Shown here: piece after piece, positions 1-48,772 of the stretch
Position numbering within the stretch: the first letter of the stretch is position 1
How the letters are laid out: each line of letters begins with the position of its first letter
Source of the DNA: Psilocybe cubensis
Taxonomy: Eukaryota
NCBI GenBank assembly: GCA_017499595.2
Contig: CM039000.1
Span: forward strand, 2,852,001 to 2,916,000
Direction of reading: 5' to 3'
DNA: 64,000 nucleotides
Notes under the pieces: generated by a model
Told to the model about the DNA's origin: nothing
What the model saw: only the letters and a program-made list of their open reading frames with translations
Database searches by the model: none
Program-made: the position numbers and the translations under genes

Positions 1-3000
1 AGATTGTGGAGCATCGATGACTCGGAGCAACTCTTCAACACAGGGATACGCAGATTCAGGCATGTCTGAAATATCGTCGAATTGCAAGTGAAAGGATTGA
101 CCGCTTAGCGTGGGGACCATGATGACGCGACTGAAGCCTGCGATTTTGACAAACTGAACCTTGAGCTTCATAACAGAGATTTTGTCGATTTCAACACCGT
201 CAGCCAGCATCTGGAAACTCAGTAAAACAAGCGAAGTCTAAAAATATAAGGTGTCTTTCTTCAAGCTTAAAGAATGGGACTCACTCGGAGATGGGATAAG
301 TCGGGATCTATACTCGATAAGTTGTAGAACTCCCTCGCCTTTTCATCGACCGCCTAAGATGATATCAATGACATTCTGGTTATAAATGATACACCTTACC
401 AAATCTCTGGGAGAAGAAAATGGTACGTCTGCGCCGTTTAGGTCATAATCATATTCCATCAGAGTTTCCATGATCTGCTCCCAACCCAAAACTTAAACAC
501 GATTGAATGCGTGGTTAATTCTAGAGTTGATTTGAACGTACCTTTCCATGCTGGGAAGTGAGGACGGAGTTGAATGAGAAATCCGACAAGGCGAACTCTG
601 TCGGTTATGGGGGCTTTTACTAATGATTCACTCCAGCACTGTGAAATGATTTCGAAGTGGACGGGGAGAAGAACTGAAGAGAAAGTTCTGACAGCGATCC
701 TAATTTCTTCCTGCTTAAAGTTGATAAAACCATTCAGCATGAATGTATCGCTGAGCGCTTACATTGGGATCTGCCCACAAAGCAGTAAAAAAGGCATAGA
801 AAATTTCGATTACACTAGAACGCCATTGCCGTCCATCGACATTGAAAGCTGGACTGGTGACATCAGAAATCATGCGAAATAGGCGGTTGACACCAGAAAG
901 TCTTTCAATTCAGAGAGTCAGCTCTGATACAAAAACAATGAAATCAAAGTGCCACCTTTGTTGGACAGTACATATGGAGGGATCCATCCAAGTACGTATG
1001 GTTTCTTGGAAGTGCTCTGGGTCTATTAGAAGGCTTCGTAACAAGAGGTTCGTGCGGACAATAGCTAAATCCTCATTTTGAATGTCGTATACATTCCATG
1101 CACTATGAAATCATTAGCCGTGGTTTCTTCGAATGTGAAAGCCAACATACCAGAATGATAAAAGTTTTCCGTTCTGCAGTATGAAGTTATCAATTTCAAA
1201 GCTTTCTAACAACGGCGGATCCGACATAATGAATAAGTTCAAAAATTTTGCCACGAAACTCGTAACAAGACTGGAATTGCTTTGGAGATAGAGGTGCAAA
1301 GCGTTGAGAACTTCGCGTTCAATAAATACGGGGTCAACAATTGTGGAGCCCCGGACGTTGAGCTTCCTCCTAAGAAAGGGGTGATTTAGTGATACAATTT
1401 ATGCAACAAAGTGACCTACCTGGAGGGTAAATCTTCAAGCTCCTCTGGAAGTACCATTCCGGCAGCTATGATAGAGGATCGTTCGCATCCATAGAGTCGT
1501 AAGCAAGCTGCAAGGGAGCGTCGAATGACAGAAACACTGTAAACAATCATCTTTTTCACTATGATCCAAGGCCCGTAGCATGTTAACTTACGATATGTTG
1601 GAATTTACCCCAGAACGCAGAGATTCCAATATTTTGGGCGCCAAATGAGACTGAAGGGATGAAATGACGCCTCGCAAATCCTGACGTCCAGATGACCTAA
1701 GCCAAAGGGTAAGAAGGATAGCTTTCGATAGAAGGTTCGCGTTTTGTAAGCAATTATCTTTGTCGGAAATTGTCAACTTCAAAAATAGCTTGAAAGACGT
1801 TATTGGAATGCTGATCCCGCATTTTATAACGCTCGAGAGGTAGGTCAAGGATTTTGAAAGGCCCGAAGGAGATTCCCGCGCCAAGTTAGAAATCGTTCTC
1901 AGAGGATCGACGTATAAAGCAAGTGAAGGATCGGAAGTAGGATCTACAATGACGGTGCTGCGCTGAATGGTGTCCGCGTCATTTCCCCATAGTTTGATTA
2001 GAGACATCATTGGCTGTAAATGGCTTTCAATCGGATTATGATTAACAAGAAAGGACAAACCAACCTTATCAGCTTGATTTAATTCAATGACCAAATTTAT
2101 CCAGCGAGTATATATATCATCAAAAGCGTCGAAAATGATTGAACACTGGCACAATTTGACAATTGCACGAAGGAGGTCATCGCATCTTTTCACAAGCTGT
2201 AACGCGTATTTAATCAGACCAATCATTAAAGCATGTTAACTGATTGCGAACATTTTTGGGATTGCCTGTCTCTAGCAGTGTGTCGATTTCGAAAGAATTT
2301 CGACTGTCCACAGATTGCTGACAGGTGTCAAAAACAGTCTGGCAATAAAAATCAGGATGTAGTGCTCTCAGCTCAAAGAGCCATGGTAATGCAAATCTAG
2401 AAATTAAGGAGCGTCGTGTGGCTACATAGTCACCGCCATTGGTGGCCATACTATTAAGGCCAGGACGCAATTCTGACGGCATTGGCCAGGGCTGTCCGTA
2501 ACGTTCGTAACGAACCCCTGGAAGCGGTTTTTGTTTTGCAACAAACTCTCGAAGTATGACGGCTAGGTTATCATCCTAGAGAATATGAGTATAAAGACCC
2601 ATAATGCCGAGATACCCTCACCTCGTCCAATATCCACTGAATAACCCTTGTAGCAAGCCTCTTGAGACCATACTCTGAAGCCAGGCCATTAGGCCAGAAT
2701 CTCCTTGTAAGCAACAGAAAGCCAAATTCATTGGTAGAAAGATCGAGATCACTCAGCGAAGCTTCAACGGATGATACCAACGTTTCCACGTTCATGGAAA
2801 GATCGAGTCCAAGGGGAAGCGGGAACATACACTGAGCATCTTTCTGGTCGGAAATACTTTCGAAAGGAAATGGACTTCTGTCAACCCGTTCGAAGAAGGA
2901 CAAATGGTGAAGCTGATTGAGGATGAGTTGCGTGGCAAAATCAGAGCGTATTGTGAAATCAACAGCTAAAATATGCTTCATGTGCATCAAACTGGTCGAT

Positions 3001-5577
3001 TCGAAAGGATACGCAATGGATTCAGCGTCTTCATCGACAATGTTGGTAAACTGATCCACATTAAGAAGGTTGGACGTTGTTTGAGTATTGCGACTCTGCG
3101 GAAATGAAGTTTTGATGGTCGCGGTAATGTATTCCAGGTAGGACCAGTCAAACATAATTGAAGGTTTAAACTTCGCCTCTTCGTTATCCTGAACAAATTG
3201 CTGGGTCAGAGGAGAATATTGAAGCTGCCCGGAGTCCAAAAGAACTTGGCAACGTTCAATGGCATGATGGAGTTCAAAGGTCTTGAGTTGAGGAGAGCCT
3301 TGCTTTGTGTTCTGCTTTCCCTCGGCAATGACAACGGATCCCAATTCAATTCCGTTGACGATGATTTGCATTTGAATTTGCAGAACGCTATAAAAGATGA
3401 TGATCTCTTCGTAGCTATGATTATTGAGTTGGTCATTCGTAAGTTGCAAAATTGGGAAATGAACTAAACAAGAACTGCGAAATGTCGCCCAGTTTATGGT
3501 AATCTCCTTGGAAGATAAGTTATAAAACCCGCACTTCCTGGATGGGTCGAGAGATGCTACACAATCCTTGTGAATAGATATTTGGCATGATTCACATTTA
3601 AGGCCTTGGGCAAAGCAGCCCCACAAAGGCGTCCAACAAACAAAACATAGACATAGTGTAAACCAAGTCGCCGGCTTGAGTTTGTGATTACAGGGATTAT
3701 ATGTGTAAGTGGCGACACTGGGATTGGGTGGAAGGTCCGAGAATTTAAACATCGCAACACGTACAGGGGCATCGTCTGTGGTAAAGTATTGAACATCGTA
3801 GTTGCCTTCAGGATAATCGTAGCAATCGAAATGGACCGCCGTCATACACAGAGGGCAGAGCAAGGCAAATTCAGAGATAGGTTTTAAGCAAGATCGACAG
3901 TCTTCGTGTAGGGTACCAGCAATCCGTGTGCGTCTTTTAAGCCTGCCAAAGTGCCACGGAACAAAATGATGGCTGTAAGAGCTGTGTGCATCATCAAACA
4001 CACAAAATGGGCTGCTAATGATTGCATGACCCACAGAACTTGGCCACAACCTTGCAAGAAACGCTACAGCCATACGTCGCGCTTTTGCACCACGATATGC
4101 AATAATTTCAAGCAGATCATTGTAAGTATCGAGTTTGGAGTTGGCAATCAGCCTGAGAAGCCCATCAACTCGAGTAGATATTTCCCCGTTGATTTTGCTT
4201 CCTTCCCCAAGGGTATCTAAATTGTCAAAAATGGCGCCGATCAAAGGAGGGAGCAGGAACGCTAGATGATATATGGCGGCGGGCTGCCGTGGGTTGTTGG
4301 TAGATTGAACCTCTTTGGACGGTTGAGGCACCGAGGTGAATGTTGATCCTAGAGTGGATGGTGAGCCATCCGTAGGGGCTTCTTCTATCTGGATCGAAAC
4401 CACAGGATCATCTTCGTCATTTTCTCCGTTGAACCCATTCTGTCGGTGAACAGCTGTAATTTTTCATGAGAGAAAGGCTTCAATGATGGTGACCAACGTA
4501 CCGTTTTGCTCATCTAATGATGATAAACCTTGTAACTGCTGGAGATGTTGCAATATTGTCCTAATAACATTTGATTCAAAGAAAAGGAGTAGCCTGGGGT
4601 GCATTTGCGACGGGAAAGTGAAGAAGGCCGGTATTATTGCGAAAGCAATTTGCGATATCACTCGTGGGTTGTGGCGGTGGCTATATATTAAAAATTGTGC
4701 GACATTCAACGTCAGAATTTGGAGTGTATTTGGGGGTCTGGATGGGCGCGGTGACGCGACACGATAGCGGCAATCTTCAGAGATGACAGAATGTAGAATC
4801 GAAACGCATAGGGAGAGCAATTCAGGAACCTGTATCTGCCCTCTCTGTGGGGAAGATGATTGTGAACGTCTTCCTGGCGATTTTGAAATTCTTCTGGATC
4901 TTCTAAATGGTGAGGAAAGCCTGGAGTCTCGCGCTTCTTCGCCGCGCAATGCTTGATCGTCAAGGCTATTCGGAATTTAATTATCATTGTACAGCACACA
5001 AACGAGAGATTTGAGCATACCTGTCGTCAAATATTTGCCATCCTTGGGAAAGCGACATTGTGAGGACATCCTTGAGTTGCATCATTAGCTCAATGGTATT
5101 GTCGGTCGTAAAGGTAGAATCATTTTCGCTATCCGAATCATCTACAACATTTCCGGAGCGTTTGTGCGACCGGTTTTCCTGTTTGGAACCTAGTTTTACG
5201 GCCTCCTTCAGCGACTCTGCTAATGCTCCAAACCCTCTTTCCGTAGGATCGTTAACAGCATTGGTGAGGGTGTCGACAATAGATTCTGGTTTGGTCCGGT
5301 TGGCAAGTTGTATGAGAACGTGTGAGAGTAGCTTTCGAGATTCATTTAACGCCCGATTGTTGGTACCAGAAAGATTATCGGGGCCAGACTTGACAGCATA
5401 AGAGAATGACGTTCGACTTATTGGTGAGACGGGAATTCCACCAGGAGATGCTGGTTCTTTAAAGTGCTCCTGGTTGGGTGACACAGTGGGTTCCCAAGGA
5501 TCTTTATACACATTGAAAGTGAAGTTCAAGTCGGTATCAATGCGCGACAAGTTATTCCGATTCGATCCCTCTGTCAT
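1..5577 (-). CDS. Large multi-exon helical scaffold protein with tandem C1-type zinc fingers; candidate UNC79 homolog (3' end runs off the window)
   Basis: ATG at 5577. Long minus-strand ORF pieces (4984-5577, 4464-4949, 2571-4403, 1588-2226, 459-740) are separated by short GT-AG introns. C1 signature HKLKP...CFVC..PLWG..AQGLKCESC..IHKDC at ~3530-3690. Motifs TFPSQMH and DLLEIIAY...AVAFLARLWP. Confidence 0.8.
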
Positions 5578-6018
5578 GGACTGAAGTCGAAGCGTTAACC
5601 AAGGTGTTTATATTGGATAAAGATTGGGATTTGGTCTCGTAATCGCTTTGACAGGCCAGAATGCAATGGATTAGAGCAATAATGATGTACCAGCCTGTAT
5701 ATACAAAGTATAGAGCAAGAGTGGTTGAAGCTCTGATGTAATGGATTGAATGGAATGTCAAGACTCAATCAGGTTTGCTGCTGTTTCGGTACCTGTGCGA
5801 GGTGTTCGGATGATATTTATATCTATACTTTTGGTCATGAGTATCTTGCCGATGAAACTTTTATCATAATTCACAAATTCGATGTCGAAGGTTTGGAAGA
5901 AAGGTATAATAGGATCATGGTACAGTTTTTCCAAATATACGTAGATACGTGATTAGAAAGAGTCGGTAGATAAACTGGTACTGATACAACACGCCCTATC
6001 CATCAATGTTATGAGCAG

Positions 6019-7076: not shown

Positions 7077-7573
7077 GACGATGTTAAAGGGAAAGGGAAC
7101 GGGGGGCCAAAGGCCTAGGAGCCAGAGAAGGTGTGGTAATTAGTTCTGGATGATAGAGAAGAGTAGTGTGGCGATCACTGCCACTGCATAGACCAGTGCT
7201 TGTTCTTGTTCCAACCCCACAGAAACCGATTACATAAGCCAGATGGCAAACGACCGAGCTAAAAGGCGACCAGAACGCGGAATTTAGAGGGATTGCAACT
7301 AAAGCGCGGGTCAGTTTGTTCGTCGCAGTATAGTCAGAGAGCTCAGAGGAGATTCAGACACATATTATTACTAGCCATAAATGGTAGTCAACCTATTCGC
7401 ATACTAAACTTGAACGTGATCGAACATCATTCACTGTCCTTGCGTCTTTATCACCATCCACCTCTTTCATTCATCCGTCTTCTCTCTTTCTTCCTTTTTC
7501 CCCTTCTTGTCTTCTCCGGTCTCTTGTGTCCTCTATCATATCCATCTTGTCCACACACCCTTTGGCAGAAACA

Positions 7574-9525
7574 ATGGATCACGAGGAGCATGTACTTAAT
7601 TTATCCGACGTCGTCCACGACGACCCTATCGACGAAGAGAGCCCCCACGACGTGCATGCTACAGATCCCCATCATGAATCAAGGCCCTCACATTTTGACC
7701 CATCTTCAAGCATGATGTCCCCGCTACACGATAACTACACCGTATCCGAACACTCTAATCATCTGGGCACCGCAGATTCGTATTCTGTCGAAATGCTCGA
7801 GCGTGAAATCGCTACTCTGCTTAATCAGAATGCCTCCGCAGCATCGGCTGCTTTGCTCAGCGCTGCTGCCCAGCAGCGGCAGGCTAACATTGATCTTGGG
7901 AGAGATGACGATGACGGCCTGGACACCAATACAGAAAATATCGCTGGAATAAATCTAGGACTATCCGGGCTTGCTGCTGTTCTGCAAGCTGTCCATGCTC
8001 AGGCGCGGCCCGACGACCAACGTGATTCACACCAACAACAAGAACAGAAGACAACAAGAACCGCTCCAGCTTTTCATTCTCTAACAGCTGGTGAGACATC
8101 AGACCATCATTCCAGCCAAAGACGAAGGGTGGATGGGAAAAGTGGATCCGAGGGCTCAGATTACTTGTTCTCAGAACGAGAGGACGCCAGCGAGAGAGAA
8201 GATTTTGCAAACCCGGAGGGAGCGATGCGGCATTCCCCATCCCCGCATCATCCAGCTGAGGATGTCCCAATTCCCTCAAACGAACTTCAGTCTGTCGGGG
8301 GCTTCCCAGAATTAAACGACATTTTGAACCCATTTCCTCATTTTGAACATGATCCTACACATAATGCCCATGATTTATCACCGCCCGGATCGCCCCCCGT
8401 TATTTCGCATGCTCAGGTAGTAGAACAGGAGCTCGGTGCAGGTCCTGTCCCTTCAATACCCATATCAGCACCGCCAAACCGTGCGAGCACCCAGCAACCT
8501 GTTGCATCAACATCCTTTTCTTCTCAACCAGAAACCGGGGCGAAGCGTGCTCGAAAACCCCAGGGGAGGGAACGAGGCTCTAACACCCATACCTGTGAAG
8601 AAGAGCACTGTCAAAAGTCATTTACACGTCGAAGTGATCTGGCCCGTCATCGTCGAATACACACTGGGGAACGGCCATTTGTTTGTTCACACGACGGCTG
8701 TGGCAAAACCTTCATACAGGTATCCATGTTTCTTGTCTTCTCCCGTTAGCAAGAGCCTAATTGATTGCTCCAGCGTTCTGCCTTGCACGTCCATTCACGT
8801 GTGCACACGGGCGAGAAACCACATTGTTGTGAATATCCAGGATGCGGCAAGACATTTGGGGATTCAAGTAGTCTAGCTCGTCACAGACGGACACATACAG
8901 GGAAGCGACCGTATAAATGCGAAGATCCAAGTTGCGAGAAAACCTTTACTCGCAGAACAACACTGACGACTCATATGCGAACCCACGATCCGAACTGGGA
9001 ACCAGACCCAAATGTGTAAGTTACGGATGGGTTTTCTCCCAGTTCTAATAATGTTGATAATTCAATTACAGTAAATACAACTTCAAAGGAAAGAAGCGAA
9101 AGATTATGGACGACGACGATGATGACCAAGAGCTAGCCGAGTCGGTTAGAACTATTTCGGCTTTGTTCCAGACCGGTGGAAACTCGATTTTGCCCTCCCG
9201 AGATGTTCAGACGGATGAACCATTAGCTGCACGGGTCGCAAGTATCAGCGCTGAAATTGCCGCTGCTATCGCACAGGCTCAGTCGCGCGGGTATGACGAT
9301 GAAGAGGACGAAGAGGGAGAAGAATCGGGCTCTGGACAAGAAATGGGGGGCATGGAGACCATTGGACCCAACACGAGTGGGATCAGAGGTGTCAACGGAG
9401 AAGATGGCGTGGAAAATGACGATATCTCAGGGCGCGGTGAAGACGATGAAGACAGCGACGCGTTTCCTGCGCCGTTGAGAGGTAGAAAAACCGTGGCGTC
9501 TGGGAGTAACAAGAGGAAGCGGTGA
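7574..9525 (+). CDS. C2H2 zinc-finger transcription factor (4 fingers)
   Basis: Four CxxxxC..H..H fingers with TGERPF/TGEKPH/TGKRPY linkers at ~8590-8990. Introns at ~8720-8773 and ~9015-9071. Acidic low-complexity flanks and a C-terminal KRKR. Confidence 0.9.
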
Positions 9526-38878: not shown

Positions 38879-41800
38879 ATGCCGCCTGCTGCCTTCCCTA
38901 GGCCCCAGGATTCCCGCAATAACCCCTTTGCTCCCAACCAGCTCCCCCAGCCTCGTCCTTACAACCCTCCTCAGCCTTATGCTCCCGCCTTTCCCCACCC
39001 CCGCCGCGACGACGATGAGGCTTCAGAGATCGGCGAACACTATGACATGAACTCGAGCACTACCAGGCTCGCTGGCGCTCCCGCTTTTTATGACCAATCA
39101 GGTATCCTCCTTCTCCTTCTCCAGGCCTCATCATCATCCACCTCACCCTTTTTCTCACAGGCGATGCGAGTTCTTCAGAGATGTTCGGTCGTCCCTACGA
39201 CCCCTCCGTTGATTCACACTCTAGTATACCCAGTATATCCCCCTTTGCTGATCCCGGCCTCGCCTCTTCAGAGCACTATCCTGCCTGGTCTGCAGACCGT
39301 CAGATACCCATGTCAACCGAGGAAATAGAAGACATCTTTTTGGACCTCACTCAAAAGTTTGGCTTCCAGAGAGACTCCATGCGGAACATGGTATCTTTCT
39401 GTCCCTCCACGTAGTACAGGCCTCTTTCGCTGACCCCTTGTCTTAGTTTGATTTTACTATGCACCTCCTCGACTCTAGGGCCTCCCGCATGACCCCCAAT
39501 CAGGCCCTTCTTACCCTCCATGCAGACTACATTGGTGGTCAGAATGCCAACTACCGCAAGTGGTACTTTGCTGCCCAGCTCAATCTCGATGACGCCGTCG
39601 GTCAGTCTCAGAACCCAGGCCTCCAGCGTCTCAAGAGCGTCAAGGGCGGTAAGAACGCTGGTCCAAAGTCCCTCGACTCCGCCACTAACCGTTGGCGAAA
39701 TGCCATGAACAACATGAGCCAATACGACCGTCTTCGCCAGATAGCCCTTTACCTTCTCTGTTGGGGTGAAGCTGGCAATGTCCGTTTTGTACCAGAAACC
39801 CTCTGTTTCATCTTCAAGTGCGCCGACGACTACTATCGCAGTCCCGAATGCCAAAACAAGATGGAACCTGTGCCCGAAGGCTTGTATCTCGAAACTATTA
39901 TTAAACCCCTGTACCGCTTCATGAGAGACCAGGGATACGAGGTCGTCGATGGCAAATTCGTTCGCAGGGAAAAGGACCATGCGCAAATCATCGGTTACGA
40001 CGATATTAATCAGCTTTTCTGGTACCCCGAGGGACTAGCAAAAATTGTCATTCGAGGTGGCGTGCGTAACCGCTTTTGTATTTTTTTTTTGATCTGCATT
40101 TCTCATCTTTACATCCTATCAGCAACGACTTGTAGACATCCCTCCTGCCCAAAGATTTATGAAGCTCAGTCAGATTGACTGGGAGAAAGTCTTCTTCAAG
40201 ACCTATTTTGAGAAACGATCTATTGCTCATCTCCTCGTCAATTTCAACCGTATATGGATTCTTCACATCTCGGTATACTACTTTTACACTGCCTTACACT
40301 CCCCCAAGGTATATGCTCCTCGTCTAAAGAATTTTCCTTCTGCACCCATGACATGGTCTGCTGTCGCGCTCGGTGGTGCCGTCTCTACGGTCATAATGAT
40401 CCTTGCTACTCTCGCTGAATTTTCGTACATCCCAACTACATGGAACAACGCTTCGCATCTTACGACACGTCTAATTTTCCTCCTCGTTATTCTCGCTATA
40501 ACCGCCGGTCCCACCATCTACATCGCTATGGTTGACGATTTGCCCAATAAAACGCAAATCCCTCTCATCATCGGTATCGTCCAATTTGGTATCTCAGTCG
40601 CTGTCACTATTGCTTTTGGTATCATCCCCTCCGGAAGGATGTTTGGTGACCGTGTAGCTGGTAAATCACGCAAGTATATGGCCTCGCAAACTTTTACGGC
40701 TTCTTACCCAGCTCTGCCCCGCAATGCTCGCATTGCCTCCATCACCCTGTGGATTTTGATTTTCACCTGCAAGTTTATTGAGTCCTACTTTTTCTTGTCA
40801 GCGTCCTTCAGCAGTCCTATCGCAGTCATGGCGAGGACAAAGGTGCAAGGATGCAGCGACAAGATCTTTGGTAATGTGCTCTGCACGAATCAGGTCCCTT
40901 TCACACTCGCCATCATGTACGTCATGGACCTGGTTCTCTTCTTCCTCGACACGTACCTGTGGTACATCATCTGGATCATGGTCTTCAGTATCGGGCGCTC
41001 ATTCGCTTTGGGTCTCTCCATTTGGACACCGTGGAAGGACATCTATACGCGATTGCCGAAGAGGATCTACGCCAAGCTTTTGGCAACTGCCGAGATGGAG
41101 ATCAAGTATAAGCCCAAGGTTCTCGTCTCGCAGATTTGGAATGCGGTGATCATTTCGATGTATCGCGAGCATTTGCTCTCGATTGACCATGTACAGAGGC
41201 TTTTGTATCATCAGGTTGATGGACCTGATGGGAGGAGGACGCTCCGCGCCCCACCGTTCTTCACGAACCAGGAAGGGGCTGGGTACAAGGGCAACTTCTT
41301 CCCCGCGGGTGGTGAGGCCGAGCGCAGAATTTCGTTCTTTGCGTCGTCTTTGACTACGGCACTGCCTGAGCCTCTGCCAGTCGACGCAATGCCTACGTTC
41401 ACGGTTCTGATTCCCCATTACTCGGAAAAGATTTTGCTTAGTCTTCGCGAGATTATCAGGGAAGAGGACCACAACACCCGTGTGACACTTTTGGAGTACC
41501 TCAAGCAGCTTCACCCTGTGGAATGGGACAACTTTGTCAAGGACACCAAGATCCTCGCGGAGGAGTCGGAAGCCGCAGACGGAACGTCGACCCAGCACAG
41601 CGAAAAGGCCAGCAAGGCGGACGACCTGCCGTTCTACTGCATTGGATTCAAGACTTCGTCTCCCGAGTATACGTTGCGCACGCGTATCTGGGCTTCTCTC
41701 CGTGCCCAGACGCTGTACAGGACCGTGTCAGGTATGATGAACTATAGCAAGGCGATCAAGTTGTTGTACCGTGTCGAGAACCCGGATATCGTGCACAACT

Positions 41801-44652
41801 TTGGCGGTAACACTGAGAGACTTGAGCGTGAGCTCGAACGGATGGCAAGGCGCAAGTTTAAGATGACGATTGCGATGCAGCGGTTCGCCAAGTTTAATAA
41901 AGAGGAACAGGAGAATGCCGAGTTTTTGCTACGCGCGTATCCGGACTTGCAGATCGCGTATCTGGATGAGGAGCCGAGCGAGAAGAAGGGTGGGGAGGCG
42001 CGGTTGTTCTCTGCACTTATTGACGGACATTCGGAGCTGGACGAGAAGACAGGCAAGCGGAAACCCAAGTTCAAGGTCGAGCTGCCCGGTAACCCCATTC
42101 TTGGAGACGGAAAGTCGGATAACCAGAACCATGCAATGATCTTCTACCGTGGAGAATACCTCCAGCTCATTGATGCTAACCAGGACAACTACCTTGAAGA
42201 GTGTTTGAAGATCCGCAATATCCTTGCCGAGTTCGAGGAGACGTCGGTGTCGAGTCAGAGCCCGTATGCGCAGTGGGGCCACAAGGAGTTCAACAAGTCA
42301 CCGGTGGCTATTGTCGGCACGCGCGAGTACATTTTCTCGGAGAATATTGGTATTTTGGGAGATATCGCTGCTGGAAAGGAACAGACGTTCGGTACGCTTA
42401 CGGCGCGCGCGCTCGCGTGGATCGGCGGCAAGCTGCATTATGGACATCCTGATTTCCTGAACGCGACGTTCATGAATACGCGTGGAGGTGTATCCAAGGC
42501 ACAGAAAGGTCTGCATCTGAATGAGGATATTTTCGCTGGTATGAACGCGTTTGGACGCGGTGGACGTATCAAGCATTCCGAGTACTACCAGTGCGGTAAA
42601 GGACGTGATCTCGGCTTTGGCACGATTCTGAATTTCCAGACTAAGATTGGTACGGGAATGGGAGAGCAGATGCTCAGTCGGGAGTATTACTATCTGGGAA
42701 CGCAGTTGCCTATTGATCGCTTCCTGACATTCTATTATGGCCATCCTGGATTCCATGTTAACAATATTTTGGTCATTTACTCGATTCAGGTGTTTATGGT
42801 GACTTGTGAGTGTTCATTTTTTCTCCAACAAGATGTTTGGTAGTAAGCATTCATTTCTTTGTGCATAGTGCTCTTTATCGGTACTCTCAACAAGCAGTTG
42901 TCAATTTGTAAAATAAACAGTCAAGGAACGGTTCTTGCTGGACAACCCGGATGCTACAACCTTATCCCAGTGTTTGACTGGATCAGACGTAGTATTGTTT
43001 CCATTTTCTTGGTCTTCTTCATCGCCTTCCTTCCTCTCTTCTTGCAAGGTCAGTTCACCTCTTTATGCCTTTATCATTTCATCGTTTAATCAGTGTATTT
43101 CCAGAGCTTACTGAAAGAGGTTCGGGCAAGGCATTGGTCCGCCTGGGCAAACATTTCTTGTCTCTCTCTCCGCTGTTCGAAGTGTTCTCCACCCAGATCT
43201 ATTCTAATTCTATTTTGAGTAATTTGACTTTCGGTGGTGCTCGCTACATCGCCACCGGTCGTGGATTCGCGACTAGTCGCATCTCTTTCAGCATCCTTTA
43301 CTCCCGCTTTGCTGGTCCTAGTATATACATGGGCATGCGTAACCTCCTCCTGTTGCTGTATGCTACCATGTCTATTTGGATCCCCCATCTCATCTACTTC
43401 TGGCTCTCTGTCCTTTCTCTGTGCATTGCGCCATTTTTGTTCAACCCTCATCAGTTCTCATATGCCGACTTTATCATTGACTACCGTGAATTCTTGCGAT
43501 GGATGTCGCGCGGTAACTCGAGGACCAAGGCGAGCAGCTGGTACGGATATTGCAGGCTCTCAAGAACGATGATTACCGGTTACAAGAAGAAGAAGCTTGG
43601 TCACCCATCTGAAAAGCTCTCGGGCGATATGCCTCGCGCGACATGGCGGACCGTCATCTTCTCGGAAATCATCATACCTATTTGCGTCGCGTGCATCTTC
43701 GTCATTGCGTACATGTTCGTCAAGTCGTTCCCTGATAAGGACGGCAACCAGAACCCTAGCCCGCTTATCCGTATTGGTGTCATTGCTATTGGACCTATGG
43801 TTTGGAATGCGGCAATGTTGGTTATGTATTTCTTCATCTCGCTGTTCTTGGGCCCGATGATGGAGTCCTGGGCCAAGTTTGGATCTGTAATGGCTACGTT
43901 GGCGCACGTTACAAGTTTGGTTGGTTTGGTTGCTTTCTTCGAGTTCTTCGTAAGTGTTTATTTCTTTGAGATAATATATGGTGCAAGTCAGAACTAATGA
44001 TTTCATTTTCTTCAAGTGGTTCCTCGAGCTTTGGGACGCGTCGCATGCCGTGCTGGGAGTTATCGCTATCATCGCCATCCAACGAGCCATTCAGAAGATC
44101 CTGATCGCCGTGTTCCTGACACGTGAATTCAAGCACGACGAAACCAATCGTGCGTGGTGGACGGGTAAATGGTACGGACGTGGACTTGGAAACTCGGCCA
44201 TGTCTCAGCCTGCTCGTGAATTCATCGTCAAGATTGTGGAGATGTCCTTGTGGACATCTGACTTCCTCCTGGGACATGTTTTGCTTATTATCTTGACACC
44301 GCCTGTGCTGATTCCGTATGCGAATACTCTGCACTCGACTATGTTGTGTACGCTTTGTTTGGTTTGCTTTTCATACGACCTTTTTTCTGATTCCATTTTT
44401 AGTCTGGCTGCGCCCTTCGAAGCAGATCCGCCCACCCCTCTTTTCGACCAAGCAAAAGAGACAGAGACGATGGATTGTTGTCAAGTACACAATCATTTAC
44501 ATCTTCATGGTTGCTTTGCTCGCTTCGTTGATTGTTTTGCGTATGTTTTTACCTTAACGAATGTTAACTATCGAGGCTGACATCAACCTTTCATAGCTGC
44601 GCTCTTCCGGGACCGTATCACATTCGACTGCTCTCTCTGCAGGAATATCTAA
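38879..44652 (+). CDS. FKS1: 1,3-beta-glucan synthase (GT48)
   Basis: [69 protein letters not shown] and GLHLNEDI, plus multiple TM helices. Stop TAA at 44652. Confidence 0.98.
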
Positions 44653-45332: not shown

Positions 45333-48300
45333 ATGGATTATTTTTCTAAATTCTTGAGAACTGTGCCACAGCCTGCAACGTCTGTTGAGGTAGACCATGC
45401 GCACGAGTTTCACAAGTCATGGATTGCCATCAAGGTAGTTTCAGATCTCCGTCGTCCCATCTAGTTAAATGACGCCCATTCAATGATTAGGACACTTTGC
45501 TAATGCCCGATGAGAGGCAACTGAGCAAGGGAATAATGGCCACAGACGTCCCAGACTTACTGAAATCCATGGTGCAATCTTTGATTTCAGAGTCGACGAC
45601 AACTGAAATTGGGTGTGTTCCATAGTCCTCCGTCTCAACGACCCGAGTGAATTGACGAAGCTCTATAATAGAGGCACTGGCGCGTGTATGGAATATCTCT
45701 TGAAGAATGGTGCATTAATCGTGTCTAATGCATGTCGCACAGCACATTGACAAGGATCCCATAGATGTCCTGGGGACGCTGGTCCGTCTCAGTGAAGCCG
45801 ACCGTCCGGCAGGAATCCAGGCTCAGGTCTTGAGTGCAGTGTCAAACATGGTCGTTTTTCTCGATGAGCAATTTCTGGTTCACTCAGCGGTACACAAAGC
45901 TGTTTTACGATTACTTAGAAGCTGTGTTGGGGATGATATACAAGAACAACTGGACGGGCGAAACAAGCTTATGGGAGCCGCTCGAAATGTCGTTCGCGCT
46001 GAGCCTTCAGAGTACGAGACAGACTGTACGTGGATCACCTTACACCGTCAGCTGAATTCTAATGTATTCACAGTGGTGAGATTACTATGCATCTTGTGCA
46101 ATCGTATCAGTTCCTATCGAGAATTGTTGATGATATTCTTCCACGACAAACACTGGTACCATTCTGAGCCGTTGTTCTCAGTGGAAGAAGGTGACGAATA
46201 CGAAGACGATGAATATGATGACGAAGAGGAAGAGGAAGAAGACCCTGATGCCACTTTGAAAGGCATCAAGCTGGAACAAGCTGCAGGCAGCGACGAAGTT
46301 CGGCCACCATCACCTAATTCATCCCAGGCTACGATAACCACCCATCAAAAGGTCGATGGCAAAACTCCTGAATATGAATTCCTTCTCTTCAACTACCTGC
46401 TCCGCTTCGTGCATAGAGAAGGTGACATAGGTTATTTCGCTCGTTCGGGCTTGGCGCTTCTGGTGGAAGTTGCAATGTCTCCTGGAAAAATGAGCAATAA
46501 TTCGACAGTGGACCAAACTCCTTCAACTTCGGACCCAGTTAATGATGCAGCTTTGGCACTTGCTGAATACATCCTCGATGGAGACTTTTCTGATGTGCTG
46601 GGTGCGGGTCTGAATGCAGTTTATTCTCTTTTGCCATCGAAGCTGGGATTCTTTCCCCATATCTCATCCGGGGGGTCCAATAACACGATGACAATTGGCG
46701 GTCAAACTATGGCGGACGAAGACGAGAAAGAGAGGGCCTTGATTCTGATTGACAAGAACCGAGCCATGGGCATTGAAGATGCTGGTAGCCCCGAGTTCGC
46801 AGCGAAAATCGACCATTTCCTCACACATTTGGTGTTTTTGCAAAATATCCTGAAGAGAAATGGAGAAAATAACAGTGTTGATCCCTCATCACTTGTGGGC
46901 ACAGCTATCGTGCAATCTATCCTCGACGCAGTCCGACGGATTTTCCTTGAAAATGTCTTTTACCCATCTATACTGGAATGCTCTGATGCAGACGGTAGTG
47001 CAGTGGCAGTCATGTCATACATTGACATTATGATAAGAACTCTTCAAGAAGGCCCACTTGTCAATCTCCTCGTTGACTTCCTGGTATCAGAAGACAGCAC
47101 TGACCCACAAATTAGGCAGCGGATCCCAGCGAATGTTAAGAATCGCGACATGCCTCCAAATTCTTCAGACGACAAGCGTGCAAAGCATCGAAGACGGCAA
47201 AGTAGTGCAATGTTACTGTTGGAAATGGAAGCACCGGAATCCCGAAAAGAAACGGATTACTTCACTTCAATGGGTCGATATACACTCAAAGATCTTTTGA
47301 TTGCTAATCTGCGCTCCAAGTCTCAACCCACAGCGACCTCTGCCCTTCAACTACTACACACTTTGCTGAAGTATCATCCACAGGTAGCGATAGAGAAAAT
47401 CCTTCTTGTTATTCCGGATTCCTTTGCCACAGTGTTCCCTCATCCCGCTATTGTTGGATCCTTACGGCCAAAGGTTGTGGATACCTCCATCACAGAACAG
47501 GACGAGGATGAAGAATTCCGCTATCCCGGAGCTGAAGATTCAAAAGATGCTTCTCACGATAGTTCGATCTTTTCACAGCCAGCAACGACCTACTCAACAC
47601 ATGAACGTGAAATGGGACTTTACCTTGCTCTCGTATCTCGAATCGATCCATCACACAACCGTGACAGCGACGGTTTTAGCACTGGCTATGATCATTATCT
47701 TCACGATGCCCTAATGACTATACAGAGTCAACCAGACTACTGGAGGGCTTTAGAGAATGAGGACAACGCGGCGCCCAGATTCAAGCACCGCCTCAACGTA
47801 AACGATCCCATTCTTTCGCTTTTATTGGAATCTCTCACTACTTTCTTTTCAAATTCCCCTGACTTTAATGTTGGCTTGACTGGCGTACTGGCAACATTGG
47901 CAATACACCCGGATCGGTCAATGTCTGGATGGATATTATTCGCGTCTAATGAAGACCCATTTGCTTCACCTAAGCCACGCTACAGTCGTGACACCCTATA
48001 CGATGATGGAGACGATCGTTCAATTGACTTCGAAATCGAAGAAAAGTTGGCTAATGACACGAACTACCTTCCAGCTGCCAGTATGGATGAAAAGTCAAAA
48101 CCTGTCATATACACAATTTTGCAAGGTTTAGTCAACCAGTTAGAAAGATACCGTCAAACGGTAGAAAATTTTGACAAGTATCTGTTGGAAAGACGACAGG
48201 GCCTTTTGTTCTCCGAAAATCTGAGCGACGCACTGAACCTAGAGTTGAACATTGTAGAGGAGCGAAAGTCGGTCAAGTCAGTAGAAGAATCCCCCGCAAA

Positions 48301-48772
48301 GTCAAAACCGAAACCCAAATCAACAGCAACTTCTTCTTTTGTTTCCTTCCTCACTCCCAAGAAGGCTAAAGTGGCTAAAGCTGCCCCTCAAACCGAACCT
48401 ACGACACCCCCTCAACAAGCAGTAAGAAAGACTGTCTCGGCGAGCCCGTTCGGAAGCCATTATCATCACACTGGGTCAGTAAAGGTAGAGCCTTACATTG
48501 CTCCAGTACCATCCAACGGTCTCTGGACGCCAGCAAAATCCCAAAAATGGACGATTCCGGAAGACGATGTCTTCGGTTCAGGGTGGAATGAGAGACCTCC
48601 TAAGGACTACGATAATGATGAAAAGGTAGCGGCACCTGCACCAAAACTCGAACCTATCACTCTGTCACAACTATTGGACAACGTTGTGATTCTGGAAGAA
48701 AGTATAAAGGAGTTGGTGGCCATTATTCATGCCAGACGAAGCCTTGGGATAGATTCTTTACGCTATCTATAA
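45333..48772 (+). CDS. FHIP/FAM160 (RAI16-like) FTS-Hook-interacting protein
   Basis: ATG 45333 followed by short exons (CMEYLLKN). Motifs FLLFNYLLRFVHREG, FFSNSPDFNVGLTGVL and the C-terminal LDNVVILEESIKELVAIIHAR typical of FAM160. Confidence 0.85.

Follow-up and report, generated by a model that had tools for sequence, protein, structure and literature searches.

A probable agaricomycete UNC79 with a tandem C1 zinc-finger insert in Psilocybe cubensis

The NALCN-FAM155 channel of animals is bound from the cytoplasmic side by an antiparallel dimer of two giant repeat proteins, UNC79 and UNC80 (Boucher et al. 2024, 10.1101/2024.10.22.619677; Senatore et al., J Gen Physiol 2025, PMC12412391; both are cited here and below from excerpts of their text). 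Among fungi, such a system has been described in Cryptococcus neoformans. According to Boucher et al., Unc79 of this species is CNAG_06362, which carries a diacylglycerol (DAG)-binding C1 domain like that of protein kinase C (PKC), and Unc80 is CNAG_01613, which carries an UNC80 C-terminal motif. Deletions of the two genes cluster phenotypically with those of cch1 and mid1, the two proteins are each other's top partners in affinity purification-mass spectrometry (AP-MS), and Mid1 and Cch1 were recovered reciprocally with them. Senatore et al. report UNC79 and UNC80 in agaricomycetes, tremellomycetes, glomeromycetes and mucoromycetes, with the two genes co-occurring in the same fungal clades. 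Here we describe a gene on the minus strand of a stretch of 64,000 nucleotides (nt) from the mushroom Psilocybe cubensis (GCA_017499595.2, contig CM039000.1, positions 2,852,001 to 2,916,000), hereafter the window. It very probably encodes an agaricomycete ortholog of UNC79, built mostly of HEAT/ARM-like helical repeats, which would act as a scaffold of the Cch1-Mid1/NALCN channel complex.

A first-pass annotation, made from the DNA letters, had picked out UNC79-like motifs at this locus and proposed that basidiomycetes keep a fuller channelosome consisting of Cch1, Mid1, UNC79 and UNC80. The proposal is correct, but it had already been published with experimental support, and the accompanying remark that such a complex had not been characterised experimentally does not stand beside the Cryptococcus genetics and the AP-MS of Unc79-Unc80 in the excerpted text of Boucher et al. 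Fungal UNC79 is therefore already known, and has been in print since 2024-2025. The real discovery, namely the retention of the whole four-subunit NALCN-type channelosome in fungi outside the yeasts, was made by others in those years. The addition from this window is minor: a confirmed and expressed agaricomycete member of UNC79, an RNA-supported correction of the gene model, and a tandem C1 insert that is conserved across fungal UNC79 and still unexplained.

Likeness to UNC79 in sequence profiles and predicted structures

Two sequence profiles were searched against 177,635 sequences of the PDB. The profile of 32 full-length fungal proteins matched human UNC79 (7sx3_D, 7w7g_A and 7wji_B, E 3e-7 to 6.1e-7), and its other matches with E<0.01 were all C1-domain proteins. 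The second profile, covering 253 N-terminal positions and free of the zinc fingers, matched four sequences at E<=10, three of which are human UNC79 (E 8.4e-6, 1.1e-5 and 5.9e-5) and the fourth a capsid protein (E 0.05). C1 domains aside, the fungal profiles thus match human UNC79 alone. The HMMER alignment to human UNC79 falls on the second of the motifs picked out in the first-pass annotation (LLRLIANSK...ARLWP, within LLRLIANSKLDTYNDLLEIIAYRGAKARRMAVAFLARLWP), so that the resemblance noticed there goes beyond chance. The first motif, ISQIAFAIIPAFFTFPSQMHPRLLLFF (..AFxTF..MH), fared less well: it is co-linear with the human TFPPFLH stretch, lying upstream in the same order, but the alignment scores 1.0-1.6 bits, which is not significant by itself.

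The Pfam family UNC-79 (PF14776, cut-off 27) is reached by one ortholog, P0020, with 34.9 bits and E 8.3e-9, and two others, P0024 and P0029, score 23.5 and 22.1 bits. A precomputed PF14776 match is recorded for six of the 44 relatives found with exon 3. When the rows of the N-terminal alignment were compared with Pfam, nine out of ten matched UNC-79 at E<=1, whereas any further family was matched by one row at most. No Pfam UNC80 match was seen.

Predicted structures gave a similar picture. The AlphaFold2 (AF2) model of exon 3, calculated for 611 residues from a 47-row alignment, has a mean predicted local distance difference test score (pLDDT) of 80.9 and a predicted template modelling score (pTM) of 0.84. 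An exhaustive VIA-align search of this model over 48,161 chains placed human UNC79 (7sx4_D) first, with Z 13.9, a root-mean-square deviation (rmsd) of 1.6 Å over 131 residues and 21% identity, and mapped model residues 64..611 to 219..537 of the human chain. No other chain reached Z>=8, the following match being Kap95 (Z 7.8, rmsd 3.9 Å). A second model, covering the 1,100 residues that follow (817-1916 of the deposited protein, P0001), has pLDDT 82.6 and pTM 0.53. With this model Foldseek placed human UNC79 at ranks 1-3 and 6 (E 1.7e-11, 2.3e-11, 5.7e-10 and 3.1e-6; TMq 0.39-0.44). The best match other than UNC79 was importin beta (E 8e-7, TMq 0.17), no other row had a TMq above 0.27, and UNC80 was absent among the rows shown. 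VIA-align again placed 7sx4_D first (Z 16.6, 836 residues, rmsd 12.0 Å), aligning model residues 108..1100 to human 595..2375, a collinear continuation of 219..537; the second match had Z 13.1, and UNC80 (7sx3_E) was 14th with Z 11.6. The best structural match is accordingly human UNC79, neither an unrelated HEAT protein nor UNC80.

Several observations weigh against this assignment. The detectable sequence likeness to animal UNC79 is limited to about 45 residues. The window's own fragment 4008-4454 matches UNC-79 as its sole family, but with E 0.012 and 14.6 bits, which is under the cut-off; Pfam found no UNC-79 at E<=1 in the five exon open reading frames (ORFs) or in P0001; and phmmer of exon 3, taken as a 630-residue ORF, matched C1 domains only among PDB sequences, and no UNC79. 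When the exon-3 model was compared with the PDB by Foldseek, nothing reached E<=0.001 and the matches were C1-containing proteins only, with no UNC79 among them, a null result that either counts against UNC79 or is at least uninformative. The superposition of the 1,100-residue model is loose, its second match already stands at Z 13.1, and it is a caution of VIA-align that unrelated helical repeats can reach Z 13-14; therefore the case depends on combining the agreement between both models with their collinear order, the gap in the Foldseek scores and the match by sequence profile. Moreover, the partner binding and function proposed for the mushroom protein would come wholly from the Cryptococcus work. 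In a very unlikely alternative, the window gene would encode an unrelated HEAT/ARM repeat protein that carries a C1 domain, with the 45-residue motif and the solenoid shape reached by convergence. Repeat proteins do match one another readily, as the 154 chains with Z>=8 to the 1,100-residue model illustrate, and the low Pfam score of the window itself would fit. However, convergence is very unlikely to have made UNC79 the sole significant match outside C1 domains in both profile searches, to have ranked it first in three out of four structure searches, where two independent models align to it collinearly, and to have produced the tight N-terminal superposition of the exon-3 model.

That the protein is an UNC80 paralog-like partner instead of UNC79 is scarcely credible, even though UNC80 is also a giant repeat protein and is itself matched by the 1,100-residue model. 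UNC79 chains stand above UNC80 in VIA-align with both models and in Foldseek of the longer one, Pfam assigns the sequence motif to UNC-79, and in the excerpt of Boucher et al. the C1-bearing protein is called Unc79 and the protein with the UNC80 C-terminal motif Unc80. An unlikely alternative of another kind accepts the homology and places the change in function: in agaricomycetes a true UNC79 homolog might have shifted its role, its tandem C1 fingers turning it into a membrane scaffold directed by lipids, for which Cch1-Mid1 would be one partner among others or no partner at all. Conservation of the C1 pair and of the module behind it extends from Mucoromycota to Agaricomycetes, and only 131 of the 611 residues of the exon-3 model superpose on human UNC79, apparently corresponding to two flanking helical segments. 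In addition, Cch1-Mid1 works without UNC79 and UNC80 in many fungi, and Cryptococcus Cch1-Mid1 gave currents on their own, according to the excerpt of Senatore et al. (PMC12412391). Against such a shift, Unc80, Mid1 and Cch1 are recovered together with the C1-bearing Unc79 of Cryptococcus, whose knockout has the phenotype of cch1 and mid1 mutants (excerpt of Boucher et al., 10.1101/2024.10.22.619677); the present data hold no pointer to another partner.

With an UNC79 ortholog preferred over these alternatives, sequence profile and predicted structure demonstrate homology to human UNC79, collinear in the models from the N-terminal region on, and on the same models the predicted protein is closer to UNC79 than to UNC80. 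By analogy with the systems described by Boucher et al. and Senatore et al., the P. cubensis protein would dimerise with an UNC80 ortholog and, located in the cytoplasm, may scaffold or regulate the calcium channel Cch1-Mid1. The Cryptococcus complex lies upstream of calcineurin, and Cch1-Mid1 with UNC79 might likewise feed calcineurin signalling in this mushroom. Pfam found no channelosome genes among ten other large ORFs of the window.

Distribution of the fungal family

When longer proteins were searched with exon 3, 44 relatives were obtained at E<=1e-3, of which the named ones all belong to Agaricomycetes and most are annotated merely as 'Phorbol-ester/DAG-type domain-containing'; the ortholog of Galerina is 57% identical in this search. 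The full-length profile of 32 proteins also reached Mucoromycota (Radiomyces, Mucor, Mortierella and Parasitella), and the ortholog of Coprinopsis cinerea is CC1G_12019. Run against 5.8 billion proteins with 8,000 candidates scored, this profile returned no Tremellomycetes and no animals. An exhaustive HMMER search with the 253-position N-terminal profile yielded 251 representatives at E<=1e-3, among which 194 reach E<=1e-10 and 90 reach E<=1e-30, and no animal UNC79 was found among the best 150 of the 251. Ten long representatives were looked up by name, two of which had none. Members were found in Tremellomycetes (Cryptococcus depauperatus, Tremella mesenterica and Kwoniella), in Glomeromycota (Geosiphon) and in Mucoromycota (Calcarisporiella, Apophysomyces and Bifiguratus). 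The protein of C. depauperatus (2,318 residues, with C1_1) is collinear with the Galerina ortholog at E 9e-84. The family is thus distributed over Agaricomycetes, Tremellomycetes including Cryptococcus, Glomeromycota and Mucoromycota.

Pucciniomycota are scored as having lost UNC79 and UNC80 in the excerpted text of Senatore et al. (2025, PMC12412391). Meredithblackwellia eburnea, of the Pucciniomycotina, has a full-length member (P0166, 2,416 residues, with C1_1), which aligns with the Galerina ortholog across the whole length at E 1e-167 and has a sub-threshold Pfam UNC-79 match of 20.4 bits. In three further proteins of other fungi (P0071, P0080 and P0086; 3,260-3,801 residues), an UNC79-like protein is joined to TRAPP-like, ferric reductase and Erb1/WD40 domains; these are most likely fused models of adjacent genes.

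Gene model, expression and neighbouring genes

The coding sequence starts at 5577, with the start codon at 5577-5575 and a protein beginning MTEGSNRNN, and runs past base 1 of the window (Table 1). The whole protein is expected to have about 2,300 residues (implied length about 2,306), which agrees with the lengths of the orthologs, about 2,200-2,350. All the peptides quoted in the first-pass annotation were found in the spliced protein, on the minus strand and where they had been placed, in the stop-to-stop frames 4984-5607, 4464-4976 and 2571-4463; one of them, VETLVSSVEASL, falls outside the span of 3480-4680 given for the feature. This helix lies within the part of the exon-3 model that superposes on human UNC79. 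Two introns were predicted from the DNA, the 55-nt intron behind exon 1 and a 48-nt intron at 4454-4501 that carries an in-frame TGA.

The locus is present in four public runs, two from one study (X1 and X2) and two from another (X3 and X4), none of which is recorded as RNA. One X1 contig, of 2,907 nt, extends to 5773 and has the joints 5021|4965 and 4502|4453, which are exactly those predicted and bear out the splicing assumed in the first-pass annotation; an X2 contig spans 4502-4933. According to the joints of the RNA contigs, the gene has 13 introns in the window, all GT..AG and 46-55 nt long. Since X1 and X2 show 13 GT..AG joints on the minus strand, they represent spliced transcripts, and X3 and X4 are contiguous DNA across the locus. 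The gene is expressed, and the exon containing ISQIAFAIIPAFFTFP is confirmed by spliced RNA contigs. All four runs differ from the window by single bases at 342, 412 and 3798, and in X3 an additional 7 nt follow 5793; differences between strains are the probable cause.

The deposited protein for the locus, P0001, has 2,162 residues and contains two mis-splices relative to the model backed by RNA. The first (window 4561-5020) joins 5021 to about 4560, so that only the last 59 nt of exon 2 are kept and 135 residues are lost, including the conserved N-terminal motif ISQIAF...TFP. At the second, at about 211-237 on the minus strand, nine residues (TSLVLLSFQ) are missing where the window's last exon begins. 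The segment of 135 residues is kept in 31 of 31 aligned orthologs, and the nine residues are kept in the single ortholog inspected there. Because RNA contigs and orthologs back the longer form, the splicing of the first-pass annotation is better than that of the database model, and the correction restores both segments.

Table 1. Coordinates of the UNC79-like gene and its parts in the window
Feature	Position	Strand	Basis or remark
UNC79-like gene, coding part in window	1..5577	-	14 exons, 1,640 stop-free codons; RNA contig joints, tblastn of orthologs
5' untranslated region, minimum length	5578..5773	-	X1 RNA contig spanning 5021 to 5773
Exon 1	5021..5577	-	DNA prediction and RNA joints; followed by 55-nt intron 4966-5020
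Exon 2, conserved N-terminal helical segment	4502..4965	-	154 codons plus split codons; RNA joints
Motif ISQIAFAIIPAFFTFPSQMHPRLLLFF	4578..4658	-	Weak co-linear alignment to human UNC79 TFPPFLH stretch
Exon 3, 611 residues	2622..4453	-	Helices of the UNC79 signature, then the two zinc fingers, a mixed alpha/beta module and more repeat helices
UNC79 signature motif LLRLIANSKLDTYNDLLEIIAYRGAKARRMAVAFLARLWP	4041..4160	-	Pfam UNC-79 and profile matches to human UNC79
First zinc finger, C1-like or PHD-like	~3822..3971	-	Sub-threshold PHD_2, PHD and C1_2 matches
C1 domain, phorbol-ester/DAG type	3531..3686	-	PF00130 (C1_1), E 4e-7, 30.2 bits, cut-off 26.5
Helix VETLVSSVEASL	2754..2789	-	Helix 554-567 of exon-3 model
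Exons 4-14, HEAT/ARM-like solenoid	1..2575	-	AF2 model of P0001 817-1916

Elsewhere in the window, two large ORFs at 40093-43997 (+) correspond to 1,3-beta-glucan synthase, with FKS1 domain 2 and Glucan_synthase matches of E 2.8e-277 and 2.5e-96, and by their sequence are assigned to a predicted cell-wall glucan synthase gene. An ORF of 1,017 residues at 45719-48772 (+) contains RAI16-like (E 2.5e-53) and DUF5917 domains. A Ser/Pro-rich ORF at 7388-9019 (+) has C2H2 zinc fingers at its end (zf-C2H2, E 9.3e-6); finger-like sequence continues in the next frame at 8765-9019, so that this is probably a transcription factor gene with an intron.

The tandem C1 insert and comparison with known systems

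The Cys/His-rich block that the first-pass annotation had seen between its motifs resolves into two zinc fingers. In exon-3 numbering, the invariant columns of the first finger are H162, C186, C189, C200, H208 and C211, and those of the C1 domain are H, C, C, C, C, H, C, C, which is the canonical zinc-ligand spacing. The His and Cys ligands of both fingers are invariant in 47 sequences, two of which come from Mucoromycota, and every fungal member examined carries the C1 domain. The two C1-type fingers and a mixed alpha/beta part form an insert of about 410 residues between two N-terminal repeat segments, the helices of the exon-3 model being located at 59-141 before the fingers and at 554-611 after the insert. 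As the 131 residues aligned with human UNC79 are approximately the sum of these two helical stretches, the module of about 410 residues would appear to lack an equivalent in the human chain as resolved.

The top PDB matches of the C1 domain are PKC C1 domains. It has the same zinc-ligand spacing as PKC C1B, on which the exon-3 model superposes at 0.7-1.4 Å over 47-52 residues. Compared with PKC-delta C1B, the fungal family is conserved at the positions aligned with LWG and Q, whereas the Pro of MSPTF is replaced by Leu. The consensus for binding of DAG and phorbol esters comprises Pro11, Gly23 and Gln27 in PKC-delta C1B numbering, and the Pro of MSPTF matters for phorbol-ester binding. Therefore, with Leu at this position, DAG binding by the fungal C1 domain is not assured. 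A tentative and rather doubtful suggestion is that the insert senses lipids or membranes, for example through DAG, and couples phospholipase C signalling to the gating or localisation of Cch1-Mid1, an input that animal UNC79 would lack. The terms 'diacylglycerol' and 'C1 domain' have 0 occurrences in Senatore et al. (2025, PMC12412391), and the excerpted text of Boucher et al. (2024, 10.1101/2024.10.22.619677) mentions the PKC-like C1 domain of Unc79 in one sentence; within these texts the insert itself is analysed in neither. A non-pathogenic mushroom model, e.g. Coprinopsis cinerea, would suit a study of the insert.

Among the known systems, human UNC79 (chain D of 7sx3 and 7sx4, chain A of 7w7g and chain B of 7wji) is, like the predicted fungal protein, a giant helical-repeat protein. 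The two share the N-terminal motif, the fungal form of which is ..K.DAYLDLL.V.AY...AR..A...L...WP, and the structural match runs collinearly through both models at a structure-based identity of only about 13-21%. They differ in length, the human chains having 2,561-2,658 residues and the fungal protein about 2,300, and in the insert, which judging from the aligned length is not superposed on the human chain. Human UNC79 is not known to have an annotated C1 domain.

UNC80, the partner subunit, belongs to the same architecture class and has a lower structural score (Z 11.6 vs 16.6). The general alpha-solenoid fold is also that of importin-beta/karyopherin and other HEAT solenoids, which occur in all the match lists, but with far poorer scores (Foldseek E>=8e-7, TMq<=0.27) and without a sequence-profile match. 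Unc79 of Cryptococcus neoformans (CNAG_06362) is a basidiomycete protein for which a PKC-like DAG-binding domain and HEAT repeats are given in the excerpt of Boucher et al. The C1_1 protein of C. depauperatus belongs to the same family as the window gene, at about 26% identity to the agaricomycete orthologs, and it fits the published description of CNAG_06362.

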